NCBI GenBank assembly: GCA_964462785.1
Contig: CAYWZA010000001.1
Location: forward strand, 1,144-65,143
Length of the DNA: 64,000 nt
From: an uncultured Candidatus Saccharibacteria bacterium
GTDB lineage: Bacteria; Patescibacteriota; Minisyncoccia; Phycocordibacterales; UBA2100
Reading direction: 5' to 3'
Part shown: positions 6,596 to 50,207 of the stretch, piece after piece
How positions within the stretch are numbered: position 1 is the first letter of the stretch
How the letters are laid out: each line of letters opens with the position of its first letter
Translations under genes and position numbers: made by a program
Notes under the pieces: model-generated
What the model saw: only the letters and a program-made list of their open reading frames with translations
The model's database searches: none
What the model was told of the DNA's origin: nothing

Positions 6596-7585
6596 TTATT
6601 TCTTTGGATTTTGCAAATACCACGTGAGAGTCTGCTGCAAACCTTTCCTCAGGGGAATTTTTGCTTCCCATCCCGTATCTTTCTTTATTTTTGAAACATC
6701 AGCGAGACGACGCTTTACACTCCCCTTGGGAGATTTTTTTACTGTGCGTTTCTTGGGGTGCCATTGCATCAGTTCAAAAATATCTTCGACAAGATCCCGA
6801 ATCAGTGTTTCTTCTTTCGTACCAATATGATATGTTCCGCCATCGGTCTTTTCTGATTCCATAACACGCTGAATTGCTTCCACCGCATCATCGATGTAGC
6901 AAAATGAGCGAGTGTCATCCGCGCCGAAAATAGTAAACGGATTTGTCTGCGCACTCACACGCCCGATGATCTCTGGAATTACATGCTCATAGCCTGCGCG
7001 CGGACCATAGAAATTGTGCGGACGCACAATCGACATACGGAAGTTGTATGCATTCGCGTAGTGAATGAAGAACAACTCGCCTATCAGTTTCTGTCCGCCA
7101 TATGACCAGCGTGGATTGTAGGTATCCGCGATCACCAACGGCACATTCTCCGGTGTCGGAAGTGGCAGTGTTCCAAATGCCTCAAGAGCGCTGCCATACG
7201 CTTCGTTTGAGGATGTATAGAGAATTTTTGCTCCTTTCTTCTTATTCTGCGTGCGGAACCAATCCAATGCGTTCATTGTCGTCGAGACACCGATACGCAA
7301 CACTTCATGCGGTATCTCGTAAAAAAGTCGCGTACCATTGATCCCGACCAGATGGTACACATGATCATATCCGCCACCGATCTTCTTCCACGAGCGCGGG
7401 TCTGTCAGATCTGCCTTGATGAACGTGACGTTTGGGCGTGCAATAAGTGCTTTGAAATCATCGTCGTGTCTGCCACGGAAAAAGTTATCGGCGATGGTGA
7501 TGTTGTATTTATTCTGATCTGCGAGCCTTTTGCCAAGGTGATACCCGACAAACCCCGCCCCACCAGTAATGAGAACGCGAGTCAT
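6596..7585 (-). CDS. NAD-dependent epimerase/dehydratase (extended SDR), UXS/ArnA-like DNFFxGR motif
   Basis: ITGGAGFVGYHLG Rossmann motif, ADNFFRGR, catalytic YGGQK (YxxxK), and NFYGP...HVIPEII. Family confident; the specific reaction (UDP-GlcA decarboxylase, 4-epimerase or GDP-fucose synthase) cannot be decided. Confidence 0.75.
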   Translation of the reverse strand: MTRVLITGGAGFVGYHLGKRLADQNKYNITIADNFFRGRHDDDFKALIARPNVTFIKADLTDPRSWKKIGGGYDHVYHLVGINGTRLFYEIPHEVLRIGVSTTMNALDWFRTQNKKKGAKILYTSSNEAYGSALEAFGTLPLPTPENVPLVIADTYNPRWSYGGQKLIGELFFIHYANAYNFRMSIVRPHNFYGPRAGYEHVIPEIIGRVSAQTNPFTIFGADDTRSFCYIDDAVEAIQRVMESEKTDGGTYHIGTKEETLIRDLVEDIFELMQWHPKKRTVKKSPKGSVKRRLADVSKIKKDTGWEAKIPLRKGLQQTLTWYLQNPKK

Positions 7586-7591
7586 GACTGT

Positions 7592-8383
7592 TTAAAGTAC
7601 CGTCGTCTTGTAGCGCTGGTTAATCTCAACGATTCCCTCAAAAAGCGACAGCCCCTTATCCTGACCAAGCAGCTTGTTTGCAAGAGCAGCGAAAGCTGCG
7701 GTATCTTTCGGAAGGCATGAGCCGCCAAAACCCCGGAAGTGCTTGTTGCAATCGAGATATACATCCTGCACATTACGGTGCTTAACAATGGCATTCTTGA
7801 TCTTTCTATAGTCCGCTCCTGCAGCCTCGCACACATCATAGAATTGATTCGCATATACCACACGCAACGCATTGAATACATTGAGAAAATATTTCGAAAA
7901 TTCTGCTTCGAGCGGCGTTACGATCGAAAACTGTTTCGGCAGAGGTTCGTGCACTTGTTTCAACATATCCGCATCTTCCGGCGTGTATGCCCCGATGATG
8001 CACACATCGTGATTTTCAATGAAATCGACATACATGGCTCGCTCACGCAAAAACTCTGGACAGAAAGCGAATCGCAGTGCCGGATGCCTTTTCGCCAATC
8101 GGTCGGTCGTACCGGGTTCAACAGTCGATTTAATGGTGACCAAACCGCGATATTTTTCCTGCGCCAAGCTTTCCGCCACTTTTTCCACGATCGACACATC
8201 GCATGCACCATCCTGCCCCAACGGAGTAGGAACACAGATAAAAACCAATTCTGTGCCAAGCACGTCATTAAGAGATGTCTCGGGCATTTTCACATCAAAA
8301 ATAGAGACATCGTGACCTATGCGCGTTATGCCGTGCCGCACAGCTGTCCCCACAAGCCCGACGCCGATGATTCCTACACGCAT
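7592..8383 (-). CDS. UDP-glucose/GDP-mannose 6-dehydrogenase family protein, short form lacking the C-terminal UDP-binding domain
   Basis: N-terminal NAD-binding MRVGIIGVGLVG and the catalytic-Cys motif GFGGSCLPKD. The protein ends ~40 aa after that motif (263 aa versus ~390-440 for canonical enzymes). Confidence 0.65.
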   Translation of the reverse strand: MRVGIIGVGLVGTAVRHGITRIGHDVSIFDVKMPETSLNDVLGTELVFICVPTPLGQDGACDVSIVEKVAESLAQEKYRGLVTIKSTVEPGTTDRLAKRHPALRFAFCPEFLRERAMYVDFIENHDVCIIGAYTPEDADMLKQVHEPLPKQFSIVTPLEAEFSKYFLNVFNALRVVYANQFYDVCEAAGADYRKIKNAIVKHRNVQDVYLDCNKHFRGFGGSCLPKDTAAFAALANKLLGQDKGLSLFEGIVEINQRYKTTVL

Positions 8384-8443: not shown

Positions 8444-10045
8444 TCATAAATCCTCGGTCCTCGGCACCAATTTCGTAAACAGTCTTTGATTGGGCCGTAA
8501 GATTTTGTTTTCCTGCGCAACAAAGATGTTAAACCACTCATCGAATGCTACGATTTCTTGCGAAAGAAGGGGGCTGCGGGTGTACTGCCGTTGATTTTGA
8601 TATTCCCAGAACCGGAGATTGTAATATTTGTACCAATATATATCGAGCGCCGACCAATCAAGTGCAATGAAGCATTCGCGGTATACCTCCCACCCGTGCG
8701 CTATGGTCCATTTCAGATCCCAACCCCTCTTTTTTAGGAATGCCGTAGGGATGTACATTTCAACCAGGTAATGCTCATATTCTTGTCCCTTGGCGATGGG
8801 TGGGGCGCTATAGTAGTCGACAATATCTTCAGCCGCACCAAATAAGAATTCGCCATACTGATATGGCTGATACGTATTGCTTCCCGTACCGAATAGTATG
8901 CGCGCCTTTTGCTTCGAGCGACTGCTTGGCGGGAAATATTTCAGCAGATTGCACATCGTCTCCATTGCTCGCGCATTATAAATACGGATGTCAGTTCTCT
9001 GCTTCACGATATACTGCGCACCCAATTCTTTCGCTCTCTTAACCCCGGCGAGCCCCGAGGCGAGCTGCATGTTTGTGTTGCCTGGACCACCGTACTCGGG
9101 CTTCCTGCTTGTCACAACCTCCGCTCCGGCATTGCGTAACTGTTCAAGTACCTGCGCGTCTTCATCGTCCCAGGTGGAAACCACAAGCTGAACCTCCGGA
9201 AACACTTTTCGATAGAGGCGGATTGTTTCGAGCGTAAAGTTACGCTTATGCATGATGGGGCCCTGCATCATAATGGCGCACCGTGGGTACTCTTTGAGCA
9301 CATCGGCTTCAAGTGTGTAGTCGCGTGCGTAGAGTGGCCGCATGTGAAGCGATATAAGCTGGCCAGTAATACTCTCGAGCACATAGATGAGCGTGTAGAG
9401 CGGTAGCGTGCGTATCTTGAAGCGCAAAAGGCCGATCCGATTGCGCAGATAGTATATCGGCTTCCAGCGTCGAAAAACGCGCATCCTTGGCTCTTTTTTT
9501 ACAGCATCAACAGCTGTGCGGACCTGCCGTGGACGATCGGTCACAAAAAAATCTGGTTCTAGGGTGAGAATTGCTTGTACCGCTCGCTTGAAGGTTTCGT
9601 CCGGTTCGTGCTGTTGCGTATTATAGGAGACGACGACTTTTTGGTTTTGATGTCTTGCATTTGTAATGGCCTGTTCTAGCTCGGCAAAAAGAGTATCGCT
9701 AGATGCCGTTCTTTCTTCCACCTCAAGCCAAAGACAGGCATCTGTTTTTTCCTTTTCTATAAGTAGCGTTGCTTGGGGGAACAAAGCGAGCATTTCAATT
9801 GCATGCGCACGGACCATTTCAGAAGTGTTTTTTGTTGTATGTACAGCAAAGAACGTATCATACTCCATCCGCCGCCCGAGAAAGTACACGAAAAGCCCCA
9901 TTAGACGATCAAAGGCATCCTCGTCTGTGTCTGGGAGCGGCGCTAGTATCCCATATCCCTCTTTGAGGGCTCTGCCATACCATGCATAAGGATCGTGAGG
10001 TGGCTTCTCTTTTTCTTTTGGGGGACGCGCAAGTACAACAACCAT
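8444..10045 (-). CDS. Two-domain protein of unknown function; C-terminal half resembles WavE-type LPS/polysaccharide biosynthesis proteins
   Basis: 533-aa ORF with no recognisable N-terminal domain. The C-terminal ~280 aa (…IMMQGPIMHKRNFTLETIRLY…VVSTWDDED…GNTNMQLASGLAGV…) matches my memory of the WavE family; this call is low-confidence. Confidence 0.3.
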   Translation of the reverse strand: MVVVLARPPKEKEKPPHDPYAWYGRALKEGYGILAPLPDTDEDAFDRLMGLFVYFLGRRMEYDTFFAVHTTKNTSEMVRAHAIEMLALFPQATLLIEKEKTDACLWLEVEERTASSDTLFAELEQAITNARHQNQKVVVSYNTQQHEPDETFKRAVQAILTLEPDFFVTDRPRQVRTAVDAVKKEPRMRVFRRWKPIYYLRNRIGLLRFKIRTLPLYTLIYVLESITGQLISLHMRPLYARDYTLEADVLKEYPRCAIMMQGPIMHKRNFTLETIRLYRKVFPEVQLVVSTWDDEDAQVLEQLRNAGAEVVTSRKPEYGGPGNTNMQLASGLAGVKRAKELGAQYIVKQRTDIRIYNARAMETMCNLLKYFPPSSRSKQKARILFGTGSNTYQPYQYGEFLFGAAEDIVDYYSAPPIAKGQEYEHYLVEMYIPTAFLKKRGWDLKWTIAHGWEVYRECFIALDWSALDIYWYKYYNLRFWEYQNQRQYTRSPLLSQEIVAFDEWFNIFVAQENKILRPNQRLFTKLVPRTEDL

Positions 10046-10119: not shown

Positions 10120-12984
10120 TTATTCTCTACGCCGACCGGTCACGACGAACAAAGCACCCTCTGAAGCAATGTTCCCAAGCCACGAGATCTGGGTCAGGGC
10201 GCGCATGAGACCGGATCCGGAACTGGTTTCCTCAAATAGATTTGCCCCTGTCTTGCTCCCACCAGTGCCGATGATAGCTGGATGTGAATTCAAGTACTCA
10301 ACGTCATTTTCCTTAAACCACTCGAGTACTTCGCCGAGCGAATGCCATGTCTCGTGTGGATTGTAATACTGGTCTTTCACCCAAATATCCGCCTTGCGCG
10401 CATCGCGAATGCGATTGCGAACGACATAGTCGATGCGAGTCCCGAAAACCTTGATCAACTTCGAGCGTATCCAGGTGGGGATTCGCGCGTAGTTGTTGTA
10501 GAGACCAACAACGATGAGGCCGCCTGGTTTCACCTTCTTTACGATCTCCGCAAACGCCACGCGCGCATCGCGCGTGTGATGCAGGACGCCGGTCGATATT
10601 ACAACATCAAAGCTATTGTCCTGTATGCCGAGCTCAAAGATATTCATCTGCACAAAGCCGACACGATTAACGCTGTTTTTCTTCTTATGATCAACGGCTA
10701 GCTTGAGGCTCGAGAGTGAGAGGTCGACTCCGAGCACGTGATTATTGTTGAGAGAAAGGAAGTGCGACATCTGCCCAGTCCCGCATCCACATTCGAGAAT
10801 CAGCTTATTGAAGCCAATGGAGTCCAGGAGCCCTTTCGCAAACGGATTCTTCTCTCCCCGAACGACCAAATCACCGAAATTCTGCACGCCGTCGTAATTC
10901 GGGAACGGATTCTCCTCATAGAATGCTTTTATCTTGCCTGTCACCGGATCCTTTTCTGCCGATTCTACACCCGAGAGAAGAGATGGAACGCCATCTTTAT
11001 CAACGTAGGGTCCCTTCGCGGTCGTAAATGCCCCCTGCGTACGCAACACTGGGATGCTCTTGGATTCGCCTGGAACCTTCAGGCAGTCCAGGAGCGGCGC
11101 GGGTATCATGCCATCGTCTTTGGGTGCTCTCGACGGTTCGATCCTGTACTGCTCACTCTTGAGTAGGAGGACATTGCCAATAACCAGTGCGTCCATTTCC
11201 GTTTTCATAAAGCACTGGTAGGCATCGCTCGGCGTGAGAACTATCGGCTCATCGCGGACATTAAAACTGGTGTTCACGAGAAGTCCGTAGCCAGTCTTTT
11301 TCTTGAATGCGTCGAGTAGACTCCAGAAACGCTCGTTCGTCTTGCGCGAAACCGTCTGCAAACGAGCTGAATAGTCGAGGTGGGTGACCGCCGGGATATC
11401 GGAGCGCACTGCATTGAGACGCTCTTGTATGGTTCCTCTCGCGGGTGCAGCCAATCGTCGCTCTTGCTTGACCGGCGCGGTGAAGAGCATGTAAGGCGAT
11501 GGAGATCCTACTTCGAAATATTCATTCGCATCTTCCTCCAAGACAGCCGGAGCGAATGGACGGAATCCTTCTCGGTATTTTATCTTTAGGTTCAGCTTCT
11601 TTTGCATGACCGGATTACGCGCGTCAGCCAGGATGCTGCGATTACCCAAAGCTCGCGGTCCCCACTCTGCCCTTCCCTGCATCCAACCAACGATGTTACC
11701 TTCACTAAGGAGCTCCGCCGCACGTTCATACAGTTTTTCCATGCTATCGAATTGTGTGTATGATGCACCAAATCGTCGTAAGTCCTTAAGCGTCTCATCG
11801 TCAGAAAAAGAAGGACCGAGATATGAGCCCTGCATGCTGTCTGTCGCATGCCTATCGAGGGTGCGGGCGCCATCGAAATATATGTGATGAGCTACCAGTG
11901 CCGCACCCAGCGCACCCCCAGCATCGCCCGCAGCCGGCTGTACCCACACCCGATCGAATATCTTGGCGTCAAGTATCTTTTCGTTCGCAACGCAATTAAG
12001 TGCGACACCACCAGCCAAAACCAAATTATTAGCGCCCGTAAGCGTCCGTGCAGTGCGGACGAGACGCAGTAACACTTCTTCGGTCACTTCCTGTATGGCA
12101 AGCGCGAGATCCATATACTCGCTCGACAGTTCATCTCCTGCCATGCGGGGTGGGAGACCGAAGAGCTTTGTCCATTTCTCGTCATTCACGGTGCGTAGCG
12201 AGGTCGCGAACAGGAAATAGGACATGTTCAGAAAGAACGAGCCATCTTCCTTGAGATCAATGAGCTCATCGAAAATTTTCTTTTTGTATTCTTTTACGCG
12301 CATGCTTCCTCGGTTTCCATATGGTGCGAGTCCCATGAGTTTGTATTCGCCATCATTGATCGCAAAACCGCAATAGTATGTAAAAGCCGAATATAAAAGT
12401 CCGAGCGAATGCGGAAACTGCATCTCCTTGATGATGGTGACTTCTTTGTCATGCCCGCGCCCGATGGTCGTGGTCGCCCACTCGCCCACACCATCGACCG
12501 TAAGAATCGCGGCCTCTTCGAACGGCGAGGGGTAAAAAGCACTCGCCGCATGCGATATGTGATGTTCGGGAAAGAGAAGTCGTGGTTTTCTGACGAATTT
12601 CTTTCCTTCGATCTTCTCGAGCTCTTTAAGGAGCACGCTACGAATGAAGAGTTTGTCCTTGATCCATATCGGCATCGACCTCGCGAATCCCGCGAGACCT
12701 TTTGGAGCATATCGATGATACGTCTCCAGAAGACGCTCGAACTTCAGAAGCGGCTTGTCATAAAAGACTATGGCATCGAGATCCGACGGCTTGAGACCGC
12801 ACTCGGAGAGCACATAGCGAGTAGCGTGCTCAGGAAAAGAATCGTCATGCTTGCGCCTCGTGAAGCGCTCCTCGTGAGCCGCCGCAACAATCTTTCCATT
12901 TACGAGAAGTGCGGCGGCGGCATCGTGAAAATACGCCGAAACGCCGAGGATCTTCCTACCCCTTTGATCCATATTCCCCGTCAT
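10120..12984 (-). CDS. NodU/CmcH-family carbamoyltransferase fused to a C-terminal class I SAM-dependent methyltransferase
   Basis: The N-terminal ~600 aa has the carbamoyltransferase/Kae1-like architecture (ILGVSAYFHDAAAALL…HHISHAASAF…ALGNRSIL…). The C-terminal ~200 aa has ILECGCGTGQMSHFL (SAM motif I) and VVGLYNNY. Total length 954 aa. Confidence 0.8.
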   Translation of the reverse strand: MTGNMDQRGRKILGVSAYFHDAAAALLVNGKIVAAAHEERFTRRKHDDSFPEHATRYVLSECGLKPSDLDAIVFYDKPLLKFERLLETYHRYAPKGLAGFARSMPIWIKDKLFIRSVLLKELEKIEGKKFVRKPRLLFPEHHISHAASAFYPSPFEEAAILTVDGVGEWATTTIGRGHDKEVTIIKEMQFPHSLGLLYSAFTYYCGFAINDGEYKLMGLAPYGNRGSMRVKEYKKKIFDELIDLKEDGSFFLNMSYFLFATSLRTVNDEKWTKLFGLPPRMAGDELSSEYMDLALAIQEVTEEVLLRLVRTARTLTGANNLVLAGGVALNCVANEKILDAKIFDRVWVQPAAGDAGGALGAALVAHHIYFDGARTLDRHATDSMQGSYLGPSFSDDETLKDLRRFGASYTQFDSMEKLYERAAELLSEGNIVGWMQGRAEWGPRALGNRSILADARNPVMQKKLNLKIKYREGFRPFAPAVLEEDANEYFEVGSPSPYMLFTAPVKQERRLAAPARGTIQERLNAVRSDIPAVTHLDYSARLQTVSRKTNERFWSLLDAFKKKTGYGLLVNTSFNVRDEPIVLTPSDAYQCFMKTEMDALVIGNVLLLKSEQYRIEPSRAPKDDGMIPAPLLDCLKVPGESKSIPVLRTQGAFTTAKGPYVDKDGVPSLLSGVESAEKDPVTGKIKAFYEENPFPNYDGVQNFGDLVVRGEKNPFAKGLLDSIGFNKLILECGCGTGQMSHFLSLNNNHVLGVDLSLSSLKLAVDHKKKNSVNRVGFVQMNIFELGIQDNSFDVVISTGVLHHTRDARVAFAEIVKKVKPGGLIVVGLYNNYARIPTWIRSKLIKVFGTRIDYVVRNRIRDARKADIWVKDQYYNPHETWHSLGEVLEWFKENDVEYLNSHPAIIGTGGSKTGANLFEETSSGSGLMRALTQISWLGNIASEGALFVVTGRRRE

Positions 12985-13575: not shown

Positions 13576-14709
13576 ATGTTACAGAGATCGAAAGGTCTTC
13601 TAATCAACGGTGCCGTGCTTCTCAGTACACTCGCCGTCCTTTTCGCCGCAGGAGAGATCTATGTACGGACTATGGGGATGAGGTCTGACAAGATAATAGC
13701 CCTCAACACATGTGTCGGCTTCAAAGATAAGCCGGGGACACAAACTGTCTTCGAAACTCCTGATGGTCCCGTCACTGTTTCTATAAACAGCGCCGGCTAC
13801 CGCGACGTTGAGCATGCGGTCGCAAAAGCTCCGGATACCTATCGCATTCTCATGCTAGGCGATTCGTTTACTGAAGCACTCCAGGTGAATCTTGAGGAAG
13901 CCTTCTGGCGTAAGATGCAGAAGCAGCTGGAAGAAGAGGGTCTTAAAGTCGAGATCATGTCCATGGGCGTGTCGAGTTATGGGACTCATCAAGCGCTCAT
14001 GACATACGAATGCTACGGCCGAGAATTTAAGCCCGACATGGTTATCCTCAATTTCACCAATGCGAATGACCCTGTGGACAACTACTTCAGGCGTGATGCC
14101 TTTTCGCCACAGTTTGAACTTGCAAGCGGAACACTTTCACTTAACGAGGCATTCAGGACGAACATCGCCGCACAGCAGAAGCGCCGCTCATCGCTTCCGT
14201 GGGGACCCATCTATTGGGCGAAGGAGAACTCGAAGGCGCTTCAGTATCTCTACGACCGTGTGCAGACCATACAAGGCGAGCGTCAACTTGGCAGTACGAT
14301 CGTAGAAGGAACCAACAAGATATATCTTAAAGAATACACGCAGGAGTGGCTCAATGCCTGGGATCTGACTGACGCACTGATGCGCAGACTGATCGCCAAC
14401 GTGAAGAGTGACGGCGCGCGTTTCATACTCGTGGATATCCCAGGAGTAGAGGAGCTCGAGCCTGAACGAGTGACCGAGCCGGAAAAATATGACCTGGCAC
14501 AGGCTGACAAGCATCTGCGTACTTTTGCAGAAAAAGAAGACGTCACTTATATAAGCCTGTTCCCCGCCATCTCTGCGGCACACACACAAAAACCCGTACA
14601 CTGGCCATATGACGCGCATTGGAATCCATACGGCCACACGGTCGCCGCGCAAACAATTCTCGAAGAACTGAAGAGATTAGTTCCTCAGTTACAGCAGAAG
14701 ACACCGTAG
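13576..14709 (+). CDS. SGNH/GDSL hydrolase-fold protein with N-terminal TM anchor (AlgJ/AlgX/PatB-like O-acyltransferase partner)
   Basis: N-terminal TM helix, block I LMLGDSFTE (GDS(L) motif), and C-terminal YDAHWN (DxxH catalytic block). It lies immediately upstream of an MBOAT gene. Confidence 0.7.
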   Translation: MLQRSKGLLINGAVLLSTLAVLFAAGEIYVRTMGMRSDKIIALNTCVGFKDKPGTQTVFETPDGPVTVSINSAGYRDVEHAVAKAPDTYRILMLGDSFTEALQVNLEEAFWRKMQKQLEEEGLKVEIMSMGVSSYGTHQALMTYECYGREFKPDMVILNFTNANDPVDNYFRRDAFSPQFELASGTLSLNEAFRTNIAAQQKRRSSLPWGPIYWAKENSKALQYLYDRVQTIQGERQLGSTIVEGTNKIYLKEYTQEWLNAWDLTDALMRRLIANVKSDGARFILVDIPGVEELEPERVTEPEKYDLAQADKHLRTFAEKEDVTYISLFPAISAAHTQKPVHWPYDAHWNPYGHTVAAQTILEELKRLVPQLQQKTP

Positions 14710-14765
14710 GGGCAGCAAATCCCTACCTTTGGAAAAAAGGGGGTACTGTGATATTTTTGAAGCTC

Positions 14766-16280
14766 ATGAGCTTCGCGGATGTACGCTTTCTTGTTTTTTT
14801 TCCCGTCGTCACCGCGCTGTATGTGCTGCTACCGCAACGCTACCGCTGGATGTTTCTGCTCGTTGCAAGTTATTTCTTCTACATGCTGTGGCGCCCAGAA
14901 TATGGGCTCCTTCTCGCTCTCATAACCGTCATAGACTTTACCGCAGCGATTCTTATCGGGCGCGCACACACTGAGGTACAGCGCCGTATATTTCTTATCG
15001 CAAGCCTCGTTGCAAATCTCGGTCTCCTTTTTTACTTTAAATACCTCAATTTTGTCCTCTCTTCGTTCCAGGAAGTGTTGGCGTTTGCGGGCAACGACAT
15101 CTCATTCCCCGTGCTCAACATACTCCTGCCTATAGGTATTTCATTCCACATTTTTCAAAGCATGAGCTACACAATCGATGTGTACCGACGACGCGTCGAA
15201 CCCGTCAGGCATCTTGGTAAATTCGCTCTCTATGTCAGTTTTTTCCCGCAATTGGTCGCTGGTCCTATCGAACGTCCACAAGGGCTTCTAAAGCAGATCA
15301 TGGAAGGTCGTGCATTTGATCTCGCAAAAGCAAAGAGCGGGACCAAACTCATGTTTTGGGGTTTCTTTAAAAAACTTGTAATCGCTGATAATCTAGCGCC
15401 GCTGGTAAACGCTGCGTACGCTTCGCCAGAAAATTTTCCCGGCCCCACGCTCGCGTTCGCAACGGTGCTTTTCGCCTATCAGATCTACTGCGACTTCTCC
15501 GGTTACACCGATATCGCGCGGGGTTCGGCGCGCATACTCGGCTACGATCTCATGCTCAACTTCAATCGTCCTTTTCATGCGACATCCCTCACCGATTTTT
15601 GGAACCGGTGGCATATTTCGCTTTCAACTTGGCTACGCGATTATCTGTATTATCCGCTTGCTCTGCGTGGAAAGAACCATTCGAGGATTCGTATCTATTC
15701 GAGCGTTTTTATCACCCTGGTACTCATTGGTCTCTGGCACGGCGCCAATTGGACGTATGTCCTGTTCGGTGCTATCCACGGAGTGTATCTCGTCGTCGGC
15801 ACGGCGACGCTTGGGATGCGCAACCTCGCCTATCGTAGATTCTGGAAGCCGTTCGGTAGGATGGCGCCTCCAACATTCCTAAAGACTCTGACCGTATTCG
15901 CAATGGTTTGTTTTTCGTATATATTCTTTCGCGCGGAAACAACGGCAGACGCACTATTCATCATCGAGCGGATTCCTCAGGGTGGCGCTGAATTTCTCCA
16001 GGGACTGTGGAGCATCGAGGGGATCAAACACGTACTGGGGATGGATGTGTCCCTTTCAGGACAATGGGGATCGATGCTCTTGCCAGGTATCGTAGTCGCC
16101 ATACTTGGCATCCTGTTCATGGAGTTAATTGAGTGGCTCCACGCACACGGCAATCTCTCGAAACGACTCGCGCTTATCCCATACCGTTGGCGCCTAGTGC
16201 TCTTTGCTGTGGGCGGATTCACTATTATGACTTTCGGCGGATTTGCCACTCCACAGCAATTCATTTATTTCCAATTCTGA
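14766..16280 (+). CDS. MBOAT-family membrane-bound O-acyltransferase (AlgI/DltB/PatA-like)
   Basis: Polytopic membrane protein with the MBOAT N-terminus (MSFADVRFLVFFPVVTALYVLLP) and the conserved-His block LIGLWHGANWTYVLFG. The ORF begins at 14619 inside the upstream gene; I prefer M at 14766. Confidence 0.85.
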   Translation: MSFADVRFLVFFPVVTALYVLLPQRYRWMFLLVASYFFYMLWRPEYGLLLALITVIDFTAAILIGRAHTEVQRRIFLIASLVANLGLLFYFKYLNFVLSSFQEVLAFAGNDISFPVLNILLPIGISFHIFQSMSYTIDVYRRRVEPVRHLGKFALYVSFFPQLVAGPIERPQGLLKQIMEGRAFDLAKAKSGTKLMFWGFFKKLVIADNLAPLVNAAYASPENFPGPTLAFATVLFAYQIYCDFSGYTDIARGSARILGYDLMLNFNRPFHATSLTDFWNRWHISLSTWLRDYLYYPLALRGKNHSRIRIYSSVFITLVLIGLWHGANWTYVLFGAIHGVYLVVGTATLGMRNLAYRRFWKPFGRMAPPTFLKTLTVFAMVCFSYIFFRAETTADALFIIERIPQGGAEFLQGLWSIEGIKHVLGMDVSLSGQWGSMLLPGIVVAILGILFMELIEWLHAHGNLSKRLALIPYRWRLVLFAVGGFTIMTFGGFATPQQFIYFQF

Positions 16281-27548: not shown

Positions 27549-28565
27549 ATGAAAAAGGCTCTTGTATGCGGGGGTGGAGGCTTCATTGGCAGCCATCATG
27601 TCAAACGCCTGAAAAAGGAGGGTTGGTGGGTACGTGTGGTGGACCTAAAAAAGCCACTCTTTTCGGAGAGTGCCGCTGATGAATTCGTAATAGGCGACCT
27701 GCGAGATCCCCAGGTAGTTGCGGCTGTTCTCAATGAGCCATTCGACCGCGTCTATCAATATGCTGCCGATATGGGTGGGGCGGGTTTTATTTTTACCGGC
27801 GAGAACGATGCGGACGTAATGCATAATTCCGCAACCATCAATCTCAATATCGCACAGCGCGCTACCGAGGTGGGTGTCGGTGTTCTTTTCTATTCTTCAT
27901 CCGCATGCATCTACCCAGAACGCAATCAGATGGATCCCGATAATCCGAACTGCAGTGAAGAGTCGGCATACCCCGCTGCACCCGACAGTGAATATGGGTG
28001 GGAGAAGATATTTAGCGAGCGTCTGTACAGTGCATTTCACCGAAACAAGGGGTTAGACATCCGTATCGCTCGTTTTCACAATATCTTTGGCCCTGAAGGT
28101 ACGTGGGCTGGCGGTCGCGAAAAGGCTCCAGCCGCAATCTCGCGAAAGGTCGCTGAAGCCAAACACGGTTATTGTATGGAAATGTGGGAAGGAGGTCGTC
28201 AACAAAATCTCCCTTACATTGAAATCTGGGGCGACGGCAAGCAGACACGTTCGTTTTTATACGTCGAGGAGTGCATCGAGGGGGTGGAACGGCTCATTGC
28301 ATCCGATGTCAGGCAGCCAATCAACATTGGCTCTGATGAGATGGTGACCATTAATGATCTTGTGCGGATGGTGCTCGAGATCAGTGGCGTTCCCCGCGCA
28401 GCCATTAATCATGTACCTGGGCCACAGGGTGTGCGCGGACGCAATTCCGACAATCGGCTGATTAGAGAGCAGCTTGGTTGGACGCCGGCGCGACCATTAC
28501 GAGAGGGCATGGAGAAGACATACCTATGGGTAGAACAACAAGTATTAAAGACGAAGCGGCAGTAA
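27549..28565 (+). CDS. GDP-mannose 3,5-epimerase-like NAD-dependent epimerase
   Basis: VCGGGGFIGSH, YGWEK (YxxxK) and especially FHNIFGPEGTWAGGREKAPAAISRK, which closely matches the GME block (GP.GTW.GGREKAPAA). The ORF begins at 27471; I prefer MKKALV at 27549. Confidence 0.7.
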   Translation: MKKALVCGGGGFIGSHHVKRLKKEGWWVRVVDLKKPLFSESAADEFVIGDLRDPQVVAAVLNEPFDRVYQYAADMGGAGFIFTGENDADVMHNSATINLNIAQRATEVGVGVLFYSSSACIYPERNQMDPDNPNCSEESAYPAAPDSEYGWEKIFSERLYSAFHRNKGLDIRIARFHNIFGPEGTWAGGREKAPAAISRKVAEAKHGYCMEMWEGGRQQNLPYIEIWGDGKQTRSFLYVEECIEGVERLIASDVRQPINIGSDEMVTINDLVRMVLEISGVPRAAINHVPGPQGVRGRNSDNRLIREQLGWTPARPLREGMEKTYLWVEQQVLKTKRQ

Positions 28566-29884
28566 CCGTTTCGGTGATCGGGCTGGGAAAGCTCGGCTCA
28601 TGTTACGCCGCGTTCTGCGCGAATCATGGATTCGCCGTTATTGGCACTGATGCAGATGCAAAAAAAGTAGACGCGATTAATAAAGGTCTCGCGCCCGTCG
28701 AGGAGCCCAATCTTCAGTCATATATAGATAAGAACAAAAATCGTTTGCGTGCTGTATATGACACGCAGGAAGCGGTCCGCGCATCAAACGCAACATTCAT
28801 AATCGTGCCCACGCCGAGTGAGGGTACGGGCGCCTTTTCGCTTGCACCGGCCATGACTGCCTGTACCGAAATCGGAAAGTCACTAGCTAAAAAGAATGGT
28901 TATCACCTTGTGGTCTTGGTGTCTACCGTTCTTCCTGAGGACTGCCGCTCAAACCTGATTCCCGCAATCGAACGTGCCTCAGGGAAAAAATGTGGCCCTA
29001 ATTTTGGATTCTGCTATAGCCCGAGCTTAATCGCTATTGGCGATGTACTCCATAATTTGGAGCATCCCGACTTTCTTTTCTTAGGTGCATTCGATAAAAA
29101 ATCCGATGGAATGCTCACGCGGATCTATGCTCAACTCTACCCAAAGCTCACCCCCGAGCACATGTCGATTGAGAGCGGAGAACTTGCAAAGATAGCGCTC
29201 AACTCATATGTAACAATGAAGATCACGTTTGCAAACACACTTGGAATACTCTGTGAGCATATCCCGCACGCCGATGTTGATCAGATTACGACCGCACTTG
29301 GCAAAGACAAGCGCATCGGCTCGCATTACATCAAAAGCGGGCTCGGATTCGGAGGGCCATGCTTTCCGCGAGACAACACCGCTTTTGCACACATGGCCGC
29401 ACGTCGCGGTGTTCACACTCCGCTTGCACGCGCCACGGACGAATTCAACAAAGGTATGCCGAGTAACATAGCCCGCCTTCTCGTCAAACTTGCGAAGATC
29501 CGCAAAACAAAATGTATCGGCTTTCTAGGTATCAGTTACAAGCCGAATACGACGCTTACGGAAGATTCCCAAGCGTTCCTCATAGCAAAAGAGATGGTGC
29601 AACGCGGATATAAGCTATCAATATATGAGCCTCTTAACAGTCGCGAGGCTGAGGCGCGTTTCGATAAGAAAGCCCGGTACTCAGCGACATTAAAAGACCT
29701 GCTTAGTTCGAGTGACATCATCTTTATCTCGAACAGAGACGAGCATTTCCGCACTCTGCCTGCCCTTCTGCGCAAGGTGTCGGGAAAAAAGATCATCGTC
29801 GACCCCTGGAGGATGTTCGCTCCAAAAGAATTCAATCCCGCGATTACCTATCATGCCATCGGCCGTTCACACTCTTCTCGCTAG
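28526..29884 (+). CDS. Nucleotide-sugar 6-dehydrogenase (UDP-glucose/GDP-mannose dehydrogenase family, full length)
   Basis: VIGLGKLGS NAD-binding motif, catalytic GFGGPCFPRD, and the complete C-terminal UDP-binding domain (GISYKPNTTL). The start is uncertain: MGRTT at 28526 overlaps the upstream gene, with an alternative GTG at ~28577. Confidence 0.85.
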   Translation: MGRTTSIKDEAAVTVSVIGLGKLGSCYAAFCANHGFAVIGTDADAKKVDAINKGLAPVEEPNLQSYIDKNKNRLRAVYDTQEAVRASNATFIIVPTPSEGTGAFSLAPAMTACTEIGKSLAKKNGYHLVVLVSTVLPEDCRSNLIPAIERASGKKCGPNFGFCYSPSLIAIGDVLHNLEHPDFLFLGAFDKKSDGMLTRIYAQLYPKLTPEHMSIESGELAKIALNSYVTMKITFANTLGILCEHIPHADVDQITTALGKDKRIGSHYIKSGLGFGGPCFPRDNTAFAHMAARRGVHTPLARATDEFNKGMPSNIARLLVKLAKIRKTKCIGFLGISYKPNTTLTEDSQAFLIAKEMVQRGYKLSIYEPLNSREAEARFDKKARYSATLKDLLSSSDIIFISNRDEHFRTLPALLRKVSGKKIIVDPWRMFAPKEFNPAITYHAIGRSHSSR

Positions 29885-48083: not shown

Positions 48084-50207
48084 TTATTCCAAGACCTTTC
48101 CAAAGACTTTCGTTTGCATATCTTTCGCGATCATATCCCAATCATAGTCCCGCTCCACCACCTTGCGAGCATTCTCAGAAATGAGCCTGGCTTTTTCTGG
48201 ATTCATTATTATTTCTTTTACTTTCTTAGCAATCGCTTGCGGATCGTCTGGTGGTACAATCCAGGCAGTCTCCCCATCTACAGCATAATCGGCGATGCCT
48301 CCGACGCCGGACGTGACAAGTGGCAATCGTGATGCCAGTGCCGATACAAACGCATTACCAAGTCCCTCTGAGCGCGACGGGGCTACGAAGATATCACTGG
48401 CTTTGCGATAGAGCGTAACGACAGATCGATCAACACGACCCGTGAAAATCACTCGGTCCTTGAGATTCAAAATGCGAGCAAGGTCTTTGAGCTTCGCTTC
48501 ATCTTCTCCATCACCTACAGCGACGAAAGTGATGTTTTTGGGTAAGTGCTCAAGCGCACGGATGATGGTGTCAAAGCCTTTCTGGTGCACCAGGCGCGAC
48601 GTATTCACGAGGAAGATGTCTCCCTCTTTCTTTCCGAGTTCTTTCTTCATCTCATCGATCTGATGTTGCGTGAAAGTCTCTTTGAGATCATTCGGGTTGG
48701 CGCCGTTCTTCACGAGAACGATTTCACCTGTATATCCCATCGAGCGCGCCCAACCGCTTAAATAGTTCGAGATACTCTGCACTATGTCGGCACTCGTGAA
48801 CGCGCGTTTAAAAAGTGGCCACGCTGGACGCATCACCCGCTCAATGTGCTCGATCGGATCACCCTCCTGAAGGGTAAGAACATACGGGGTGCGCGGCGAG
48901 AACAGTTTAAAAATTGCTGCAGGAATGCCTGCTGAGTGTGCCATCATGGACCAGATGCCGTCGTAGCGGTATCTCGCATGGAGCTGAAGCCCTTTCAACC
49001 CGCCAAGGATCTGAAACAGGTACTTGTTCATCTTGAGAATGAATTTTCCGCCATAATCCCTGAATGCTGGGTCAGGCACCCCAAAACCAATTCGATGCAC
49101 CAGCACATTCCCATATCGCTCCACACGCGGAATGTTCGAATTCCACCAGCACGTCACCATATGAAACTCGATATCCTGCGGTGAAATACGATCGGTGATC
49201 TCCTTGATTGCCGGCTCTGCACCGCCGTGAAAATTCGGATAATACGCGAGCGAAAAAATGAGTACTCGTTTCTTGGGTTTAAGGTTTACGAATTCAGTCA
49301 TATCCTGACGTCGTGTGTGTGCCTCAGTAGTTTTGAGCATTTTCACATACTCTGCAAGTGTGTGGTGTTGTCGCCAGCCAAGCGCTTCGAGCTTGGAAGT
49401 GTCTACAGATTCGGACGACCGCGTTGATTTTGTGGGTGATGAATATTCCAAATGTCCGCCGAACATGCGTGCAACATCGAGCAGGCTGAGTGTCTCCTTG
49501 GCACAAATACCGAACTCATCGTTCTGCCCTTTGTTTCCCGCGAGCACGATTCCCTCGACCGTGTCGAGAACGTGTGTGAAAGCCCGCTTTTGGTTTCCCG
49601 AACCTGCAATACGATGCGGTGTTCCATGGAGCCAGTTCTGATGTAATATTTCGATGAGCGTGCCATACTGATCTCCCCGCTCTCGTGGACCGTATACATT
49701 GTAGAAATAGACAATCGCGTACGGCAGCTCAAACCACCGCGCATACTGCACCACAAGCTCACTCATTGCCGCCTTGGACCACGTGTACGGCGCAAGATTT
49801 CTTCCCTCAATGCCATCCTCATCCCGAAAAGTGAACTTGGTCGAGGAACCCGCATAGACAAACTTACAACGCTTTTCACGCCAATACTCAAGTACACCGA
49901 GGGTGCCAAGGAGATTCAGATCGAATGTCACCTGTGGCTCGGTGAGCGAATGCCGCACCCGAGAATATTCCCCTAGGTGGTAGATGATATCCGGATCTTC
50001 CGGGATGAGCTTTGCAATATCTTTTGTATGCCCGCGCCGATACTCCACACCCTCTACATGATTGCTTTCCGACCCGGTGAAATAGTTGTCGAGAGAAATA
50101 ACACGATGACCGTCCTTTGCTAGACGTTCACAAAGATGGGAGCCAATAAACCCAGCTCCGCCTGTCACGACGACTGTCTTTCTAGGCTGCACCAAAATAT
50201 AATACAA
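48084..50207 (-). CDS. Fusion protein: N-terminal UXS/ArnA-like NAD-dependent epimerase/dehydratase + C-terminal GT4 glycosyltransferase
   Basis: N-terminal VVVTGGAGFIGSHLCERL, DNYFTGS and YTWSKAA (YxxxK) over ~300 aa. Then a GT-B domain with …SRSEGLGNAFVSALASRLPLVTSGVGG… (E-X7-E-like). Total 707 aa. Confidence 0.8.
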   Translation of the reverse strand: MYYILVQPRKTVVVTGGAGFIGSHLCERLAKDGHRVISLDNYFTGSESNHVEGVEYRRGHTKDIAKLIPEDPDIIYHLGEYSRVRHSLTEPQVTFDLNLLGTLGVLEYWREKRCKFVYAGSSTKFTFRDEDGIEGRNLAPYTWSKAAMSELVVQYARWFELPYAIVYFYNVYGPRERGDQYGTLIEILHQNWLHGTPHRIAGSGNQKRAFTHVLDTVEGIVLAGNKGQNDEFGICAKETLSLLDVARMFGGHLEYSSPTKSTRSSESVDTSKLEALGWRQHHTLAEYVKMLKTTEAHTRRQDMTEFVNLKPKKRVLIFSLAYYPNFHGGAEPAIKEITDRISPQDIEFHMVTCWWNSNIPRVERYGNVLVHRIGFGVPDPAFRDYGGKFILKMNKYLFQILGGLKGLQLHARYRYDGIWSMMAHSAGIPAAIFKLFSPRTPYVLTLQEGDPIEHIERVMRPAWPLFKRAFTSADIVQSISNYLSGWARSMGYTGEIVLVKNGANPNDLKETFTQHQIDEMKKELGKKEGDIFLVNTSRLVHQKGFDTIIRALEHLPKNITFVAVGDGEDEAKLKDLARILNLKDRVIFTGRVDRSVVTLYRKASDIFVAPSRSEGLGNAFVSALASRLPLVTSGVGGIADYAVDGETAWIVPPDDPQAIAKKVKEIIMNPEKARLISENARKVVERDYDWDMIAKDMQTKVFGKVLE

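Follow-up and report, generated by a model that had tools for sequence, protein, structure and literature searches.

The 64,000-nucleotide stretch of DNA analyzed here (the window), part of contig CAYWZA010000001.1 from an uncultured Candidatus Saccharibacteria bacterium, carries two short genes, termed open reading frame (ORF) A and ORF B, whose products resemble the nucleoside diphosphate (NDP)-sugar dehydrogenases of the UDP-glucose dehydrogenase/GDP-mannose dehydrogenase (UGDH/GMD) family. The two genes were delineated by Pfam searches, homologue searches, AlphaFold2 (AF2) models and Foldseek comparisons, and their motifs by alignment:

7592..8383, minus strand: ORF A, a short two-domain NDP-sugar dehydrogenase homologue of 263 residues
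42269..43156, minus strand: ORF B, a second short dehydrogenase paralogue of 295 residues
8348..8365, minus strand: GxGxxG dinucleotide-binding motif of A, G7-V-G9-L-V-G12
8294..8296, minus strand: Asp30 of A, at the end of strand β2
7703..7735, minus strand: active-site motif of A, R217-G-F-G-G-S-C223-L-P-K-D227, with the catalytic Cys at 7715..7717
42452..42484, minus strand: active-site motif of B, R225-G-A-G-G-H-C231-F-I-K-D235

B exhibits a nucleotide-binding motif of the same form (G7xG9xxG12). An earlier reading of the DNA letters alone (the sequence-only reading) had described two such ORFs with a Rossmann motif and a catalytic-Cys motif and without the carboxy-terminal domain of the family, which the ORF list and the Pfam searches bear out in full. 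It had also let both proteins end ~40–50 residues past the Cys motif. This holds for A, which terminates 40 residues past its Cys, and fails for B, which continues for 64 residues and displays a longer pre-Cys loop as well as a conserved helical carboxy-terminal tail of ~30 residues.

Each protein comprises two recognizable domains. The Pfam profile of the amino-terminal NAD-binding domain, PF03721, matched A with an E-value of 4e-19 (69.3 bits; cut-off 27) over profile positions 76–186 only and B with 3e-14 (53.4 bits) over positions 68–182, whereas the central-domain profile PF00984 was covered from position 2 to 93 of 94 by A (2e-17, 63.9 bits; cut-off 25.4) and nearly in full by B (8e-16, 58.4 bits). 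The PF03721 match is partial in both cases because ~32 residues following β2 are deleted. PF03720, the carboxy-terminal UDP/GDP-binding domain, had no Pfam match in A or B, and the nearest NCBIfam model for both, TIGR03026 (nucleotide sugar dehydrogenase), was aligned only up to about position 300 of 413. Alignment with canonical enzymes, as the sequence-only reading had proposed, places A and B on the amino-terminal plus central domains, and it also revealed the ~32-residue deletion, which that reading had missed. A and B share 27% identity end to end (E-value 2e-21), and they are closer to each other than either is to the full-length family member of the window:

28526..29884, plus strand: full-length three-domain paralogue of 452 residues (Pfam PF03721, PF00984 and PF03720; TIGR03026 at 295.5 bits, above the cut-off)

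A and B are genuine paralogues within the UGDH/GMD family, and their length class is shared by a large set of homologues. In a collection of 5.8 billion proteins more than 1,000 homologues of 254–272 residues match A (median 263 among those listed), and 4,686 match B, with ~280–300 residues (median 294 among those listed), mostly from Patescibacteria (Paceibacteria, Kaiserbacteria, Adlerbacteria) and labelled 'UDPglucose 6-dehydrogenase' by JGI and 'hypothetical protein' by NCBI. An exhaustive HMMER search over 1.84 billion representatives returned 11,777 matches, 186 of them at E ≤ 1e-30, with the top 150 nearly all measuring 250–290 residues. Scanning one genome per species of GTDB for the motif RG[FA]GGxC[LF][PI]K yielded at least 578 loci or species, and the ORFs of the best 80 loci are all short after correction for over-extended starts. 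Four apparent long fusions (L020, L039, L040, L065) were rejected on this ground, being over-extended start codons in GC-rich DNA. The hosts include Patescibacteria, Acidobacteriota, gammaproteobacterial metagenome-assembled genomes (MAGs), Nitrosopumilaceae and many Poseidoniales (marine group II), besides Woesearchaeota, Nanoarchaeota, Pelagibacteraceae and Spirochaetia. Short forms also occur in phages, namely Campylobacter phage CP220 (gp019, 256 residues), phage C48C1 (319 residues), Microbacterium phage Fireman (262 residues) and F379 (256 residues), where they are annotated as 'UDP-glucose dehydrogenase' by homology. Selection thus maintains a genuine short form, and the two genes are conserved members of a large, uncharacterized branch of the UGDH family extending beyond this genome. 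Its architecture had been called undescribed, which is right insofar as searches of open-access papers and preprints yielded no description or characterization of a UGDH form devoid of the carboxy-terminal domain, and too strong in that thousands of such sequences from many phyla and phages are routinely labelled by JGI and in phage records.

The short length by itself could point to truncated pseudogenes or to assembly or frameshift artefacts, an explanation with nothing else in its favor and, in our assessment, a negligible chance of being correct. The TAA stop codon of A is followed after 6 nt by the ATG of the next gene, and the stop codon of B overlaps the start of a PIF1-like helicase gene as ATGA. 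Six-frame searches of the window, either with its own carboxy-terminal domain or with a hidden Markov model (HMM) of seven canonical ones, matched the full-length gene only, leaving no such sequence for A or B in any frame; the same HMM had no match in any short protein, and precomputed Pfam assignments for 240 close homologues of A and B contained no PF03720. Together with the conserved length of the homologues, which are independent and number in the thousands, these gene starts and searches rule out a pseudogene or frameshift, and the AF2 models are confident and complete. A frameshift restoring a carboxy-terminal domain, raised beforehand as the finding that would overturn the short-form description, is excluded for both genes. 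We also considered a split gene with the missing domain encoded by the ~140-residue ORF located downstream in Poseidoniales loci and rejected it, as these ORFs encode GtrA/DPMS membrane proteins.

A mixed alignment of short and canonical sequences revealed three derived characters. The deletion of ~32 residues after β2 is common to all short forms and not found in canonical enzymes. Likewise, all short forms carry an insertion of 7–10 residues together with an Arg directly preceding the GGxC motif (RG[FA]GGxC), without counterpart in canonical enzymes. The third character is the early end of the chain without a carboxy-terminal domain: the short forms stop 8–25 residues after the conserved Asn closing the central domain, or 41 residues after it in the case of ORF B with its longer tail. 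The spacing from GxGxxG to PEF is ~103 residues as against 146, as determined with a strict motif that missed 79 of 150 representatives. In a neighbor-joining (NJ) tree all short forms fall into a single clan, separated from seven full-length sequences and Mycobacterium avium GdhgA with a bootstrap value of 60%. Sequences from MAGs labelled Spirochaetia and Woesebacteria (L042, L058) cluster at 100% bootstrap, as do those from Pseudobdellovibrionaceae and Poseidoniales (L035, L053), which suggests recent horizontal transfer or mis-binned contigs.

Two groups of known proteins share the absence of the carboxy-terminal domain. GdhgA (AAD44217, 346 residues; AF143772, L092), encoded in the glycopeptidolipid cluster of M. 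avium, is a UGDH homologue likewise ending shortly after the central domain. However, it retains a full-length amino-terminal domain, lacks the Arg and the loop insertion, and groups with the full-length enzymes in the NJ tree, so that it probably lost its carboxy-terminal domain independently. The phage proteins have the two-domain architecture and the length class of A and B; those of CP220 and C48C1 fall into the same NJ clan, and the BFVD models of F379 and Fireman show the same fold with target-normalized TM-scores (TMt) of 0.75–0.81. They differ in being only 26–30% identical and, for CP220, in a context of genes for QueE-like radical S-adenosylmethionine (SAM) proteins. Here gp019 (14033..14803 of the record, L089) is located between QueE-like and other radical-SAM genes. 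The phage group to which CP220 belongs has modified DNA bases.

The catalytic set is intact in both proteins. A could be aligned with GMD (1mfz; E-value 4e-21, A residues 41–238) at Thr124, Glu157, Glu161, Lys210, Asn214, Cys268 and Asp272, yielding the following catalytic set:

Catalytic Thr: T87 in A, T84 in B
First catalytic Glu: E110 in A, E107 in B
Second catalytic Glu: E114 in A, E111 in B
Catalytic Lys: K164 in A, K164 in B
Catalytic Asn: N168 in A, N168 in B
Catalytic Cys: C223 in A, C231 in B
Catalytic Asp: D227 in A, D235 in B

In human UGDH (hUGDH) catalytic roles are assigned to Thr131, Glu161/165, Lys220 and Asn224 (PMC3129169). Across alignments of 118 A-family and 117 B-family sequences the seven residues are invariant save for single substitutions, E114A in an A-family and K164R in a B-family member, and they also hold when both families are compared. 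C223, K226 and D227 do not vary among A-family sequences, and C231, K234 and D235 are present in 117 of 117 B-family sequences; a further B alignment showed R225, G226, G228, G229, C231, K234 and D235 as invariant. The Arg before GGxC and the Gly next to it (R217 and G218 in A) are invariant across both families. The 'D.RIG' Arg, which in hUGDH binds O2/O3 of the sugar in the partner subunit (PMC3129169), is conserved as R203 in 92 of 118 A-family sequences and as R204 in 116 of 117 B-family sequences.

The dinucleotide-binding residues are likewise conserved, with one difference between the families. All three Gly of GxGxxG are found in 117/117 B-family sequences; in the A family G12 and D30 are invariant (118/118), and positions 7 and 9 hold Gly in 109 and 110 sequences out of 118, respectively, with gaps in the rest. 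Asp36 of hUGDH, the equivalent of Asp30 in A, sets the specificity for NAD+ (PMC3129169). The B family instead has invariant R28 and Y29 followed by Ala, Ser or Thr at position 30, without an acidic residue where A has its invariant Asp. The cofactor preference of B may therefore differ from that of A, with NADP+ as the possible favorite or with both cofactors accepted.

The degree of conservation also bears on the possibility of dehydrogenase-derived regulators that sense NAD or sugar without catalysis, a role that the sequence-only reading had entertained for truncated forms. Three homologues lend some substance to it:

Amino-terminal LexA-type DNA-binding domain plus short dehydrogenase: P0316 (PF01726, E-value 2e-13), L055 (PF01726, E-value 6e-11) and L085 (by sequence only)

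These dehydrogenases, to which the LexA-type domain is joined in frame, may be metabolite-sensing regulators or moonlighting enzymes. Yet their catalytic motifs are intact, and in ~235 sequences, the LexA fusions included, the seven catalytic residues vary not at all or hardly, which disfavors a regulatory role; A and B themselves contain no DNA-binding or signaling domain detectable by Pfam. Inteins with LAGLIDADG endonucleases, moreover, target the GGxC site of four short-form representatives (among P0250, P0256, P0265, P0343 and P0260). Inteins usually occupy functionally essential sites. P0260 is an intein fragment beginning right at the Cys. Taken together, we regard a non-catalytic regulator as very improbable.

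AF2 predicted both folds with high confidence (pLDDT 94.4 for A and 95.1 for B; pTM 0.91). Foldseek superposed A and B on the amino-terminal plus central domains of UGDHs with E-values down to 1e-18. The top matches were 3vtf, 3gg2 and hUGDH for A, with query-normalized TM-scores (TMq) of 0.85–0.88, and 1dli, 3pid and hUGDH for B (TMq 0.70–0.78). Relative to the characterized UGDH/Ugd/HasB enzymes (3vtf, 3gg2, 1dli, human 2q3e) the short forms thus retain the fold of two domains (TMq 0.70–0.88, 22–28% identity), the catalytic set, the GGxCxxKD motif and the partner-subunit 'D.RIG' Arg. In contrast, the characterized enzymes possess the PF03720 Rossmann-like UDP-binding domain (~100–130 residues) and the ~32 residues after β2, and their pre-Cys loop is 7–10 residues shorter and lacks the Arg of the short forms. 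The GDP-mannose 6-dehydrogenase AlgD (1mfz), whose catalytic residues are all matched by A, is also a three-domain protein, and the genomic context of A and B gives no pointer to GDP-mannuronate or alginate.

The two-domain 6-phosphogluconate dehydrogenase (6PGDH)-like enzymes, comprising 3-hydroxyisobutyrate, 6-phosphogluconate and 3-hydroxyacyl-CoA dehydrogenases, resemble the short forms in combining a Rossmann domain with a helical dimerization domain, and their minimal Rossmann domain is similar to the trimmed domain of A and B. However, they lack the catalytic-Cys motif and are absent from the top structural matches. A scored against PF03446, PF02737 and PF03807 with E-values of at least 0.017, all under the cut-offs. 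For B only PF03807 (F420_oxidored) reached its cut-off (23.5 against 21.6 bits), with PF03446 at 19.7 bits, and both matches span residues 2–57 only, corresponding to the shared Rossmann start. A better fit to another Rossmann family, which the sequence-only reading had named as evidence that would speak against its proposal, was therefore not found: Pfam and NCBIfam matches of this kind were weak and amino-terminal, and the top Foldseek matches were all UGDHs.

Both genes are located next to genes of sugar metabolism:

6596..7585, minus strand: extended short-chain dehydrogenase/reductase (SDR; NAD-dependent epimerase/dehydratase family) of 329 residues, 6 nt downstream of A (Pfam PF01370, PF16363)
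8444..10045, minus strand: WavE-like protein of 533 residues, immediately upstream of A (Pfam PF07507, E-value 1e-11)
43511..44581, minus strand: family 4 glycosyltransferase (GT4) upstream of B (Pfam PF00534, PF13692, PF13439 for this gene and the next)
44499..45587, minus strand: second GT4 upstream of B

The extended SDR is the probable operon partner of A. It carries an S-x-x-E sequence (SSNE) and a YxxxK motif. Its NCBIfam matches, the best being dTDP-glucose 4,6-dehydratase and LegB, all remained under their cut-offs, and in the PDB its similarity was about the same to GDP-sugar 4-epimerase 8rdg (E-value 6.5e-29), dTDP-glucose 4,6-dehydratase 8du1 (1e-26) and UDP-xylose synthase (UXS) 4lk3 (4e-25). 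Of the neighborhood described beforehand, the extended SDR after A and the GT4 genes before B are confirmed, and the supposed likeness of the SDR to UXS is no closer than that to epimerases and dehydratases.

A similar setting recurs elsewhere. We counted neighbors on the same strand in the 80 best GTDB loci, obtaining 61 upstream and 57 downstream. The commonest upstream neighbor is a sugar-1-phosphate nucleotidyltransferase (NTP_transferase, PF00483; 32/61), and the four members sampled, each taken from a marine group II archaeal locus, are of the RmlA-long/GlmU-like type. Downstream, an extended SDR is present in 15 of 57 cases, these loci being the closest relatives (Patescibacteria, Acidobacteriota, Nitrosopumilaceae), and the dehydrogenase-then-SDR order of the window is also seen in L001 and L003. 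A GtrA/DPMS membrane protein accounts for a further 15 of the 57; the one inspected came from a marine group II locus. Genes of the B family lie among GT4 and family 2 glycosyltransferase (GT2) genes in L005–L008. Across L027–L087, many of them from Poseidoniales, a conserved unit recurs, with the genes for a sugar-1-phosphate nucleotidyltransferase, the short dehydrogenase and a GtrA/DPMS-type membrane protein of ~140 residues in this order. Natural fusions involve several of these partners:

P0317: GalU-like transferase plus short dehydrogenase, the dehydrogenase part scoring 194 bits on TIGR03026, above the cut-off
P0385: short dehydrogenase plus SDR
P0243: short dehydrogenase plus GT4
P0352: short dehydrogenase plus GT2
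P0355: amino-terminal adenylylsulfate (APS) kinase plus short dehydrogenase

The APS kinase fusion hints at a link to sulfated glycans. The sequence-only reading had also allowed for a different substrate; the conserved linkage and the fusions to nucleotidyltransferases, SDRs and glycosyltransferases point to an NDP-sugar as the putative substrate.

Parts of the same context could be read differently. The short forms might be active C6 oxidases acting on a non-nucleotide substrate, such as a sugar carried by polyprenyl phosphate, by a glycan or by some other small molecule, so that uronic acids would be made after transfer. The UMP-anchoring domain is lost and the substrate loop remodelled, the GtrA/DPMS-type protein lies directly downstream in the loci counted above and also near the A homologue in L003, and fusions to GT4 and GT2 occur, all of which would suit such a substrate. 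This is opposed by the nucleotidyltransferase as the commonest upstream neighbor and by its GalU-like relative fused to a short dehydrogenase, which speaks for local synthesis of an NDP-sugar. Residues in contact with the sugar, the partner-subunit Arg among them, are retained, and the compact, soluble AF2 models show no membrane segment or lipid-binding feature. We therefore consider a non-nucleotide substrate unlikely.

The tight coupling to neighbors could alternatively indicate that the short proteins are catalytic cores in need of a nucleotide-binding partner, be it the SDR, a glycosyltransferase, a nucleotidyltransferase or, by heterodimerization through the central domain, the full-length paralogue. 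The 6-nt gap to the SDR, the recurrent NTP_transferase and SDR neighbors, and the fusions to the same partner types are compatible with this arrangement, as are the retained dimerization domain and the presence of a full-length paralogue in the window. Conversely, PF03720 is not among the 25 commonest neighbor families of the loci, no fusion contains the domain, and the window has none beyond the full-length gene, so that a partner domain acting in trans, as the sequence-only reading had envisaged, finds no candidate there. Partners vary by clade (SDR, glycosyltransferase, NTP_transferase, GtrA), which argues that no single one is obligate; many loci, L002 and L006 among them, have no such neighbor at all, and A is only 27% identical to the full-length paralogue. 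Dependence on a partner is accordingly improbable.

We favor, with a probability of roughly 0.6, the interpretation of A and B as compact and catalytically active NDP-hexose 6-dehydrogenases belonging to an old and widespread branch of the UGDH/GMD family, as the conserved active site, the predicted fold and the gene context suggest. Each would consist of a trimmed NAD(P)-binding Rossmann domain and a helical central domain, through which the protein probably dimerizes as canonical enzymes do. Catalysis would proceed as a two-step oxidation of the sugar C6 alcohol to the acid via a thiohemiacetal and a thioester on C223 in A or C231 in B, aided by the Thr, both Glu, the Lys, the Asn and the Asp of the conserved set. 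An NDP-hexose is the likeliest substrate, UDP-glucose and dTDP-glucose being the leading candidates, and the product would pass to the adjacent SDR in the case of A, or to the glycosyltransferases in the case of B, for cell-surface glycan synthesis. The nucleotide may be held more loosely than in canonical enzymes or by the lengthened pre-Cys loop with its family-typical Arg (R217/R225).

Several observations weigh against this interpretation. Canonical enzymes grip UMP chiefly via the carboxy-terminal domain (PMC3129169), which makes tight NDP-sugar binding in its absence hard to account for. A and B score 154.0 and 122.2 bits on TIGR03026, both under its cut-off of 189.8; given these scores and the absence of PF03720, we class them as a structural variant within the family, distinct from its ordinary members. 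The top 50 PDB matches are all three-domain proteins of 377–467 residues, and hence no short form has been solved. The monophyly of the short forms rests on seven canonical sequences and a bootstrap of 60%. The SDR following A could not be assigned to the decarboxylase, epimerase or dehydratase class by PDB and NCBIfam comparisons. Finally, the genome also encodes the full-length paralogue, so that the canonical activity does not have to come from the short forms.

The full-length paralogue itself departs from the family pattern. It had been taken for a complete family member, which is correct for its three domains; its active-site segment, however, is atypical and reads YSPSLIAIG in place of the NPEFLREG of the family. 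Not one of 118 homologues has the second Glu, and at the position of the first Glu 57 of them carry Ser, 53 Glu, 7 Leu and 1 Gly. The chemistry or substrate of this protein may differ from that of UGDH, and at this segment A and B are more canonical than their full-length paralogue. Gp227 of Synechococcus phage Bellamy (NPYLIAMG) falls into the same subgroup as the full-length paralogue.

Three further genes of the window complete the surroundings of A and B:

10120..12984, minus strand: 954-residue protein joining a NodU/CmcH-type carbamoyltransferase (PF02543, PF16861) to a SAM-dependent methyltransferase domain
48084..50207, minus strand: fusion of an extended SDR with a GT4 glycosyltransferase, 707 residues, a further pathway fusion in the glycan region
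40593..42272, minus strand: PIF1-like helicase with a carboxy-terminal HTH_40 domain, the gene overlapping the end of B, within an otherwise glycan-related gene run

In textbook accounts of the UGDH family the nucleotide is anchored by the carboxy-terminal domain, and a clade that lacks this domain while keeping the catalytic residues challenges its indispensability. It is conceivable, and we advance this only tentatively, that the clade dispenses with the nucleotide-binding domain since its sugars are not nucleotide-activated, being polyprenyl-phosphate-linked or already transferred, or since it handles NDP-sugars through a minimal binding mode based on the Arg loop. If true, Patescibacteria, marine group II archaea, ammonia-oxidizing archaea and phages would possess an unrecognized way of making uronic acids or a novel principle of recognition. 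In thousands of metagenomic genomes the genes bear the label of a UDP-glucose 6-dehydrogenase or of a hypothetical protein, and knowing the true product would correct reconstructions of glycan pathways in Patescibacteria, the Poseidoniales as abundant marine archaea, the Nitrosopumilaceae and several phages, and an enzyme of ~260 residues could be a minimal scaffold for engineered uronic-acid synthesis.

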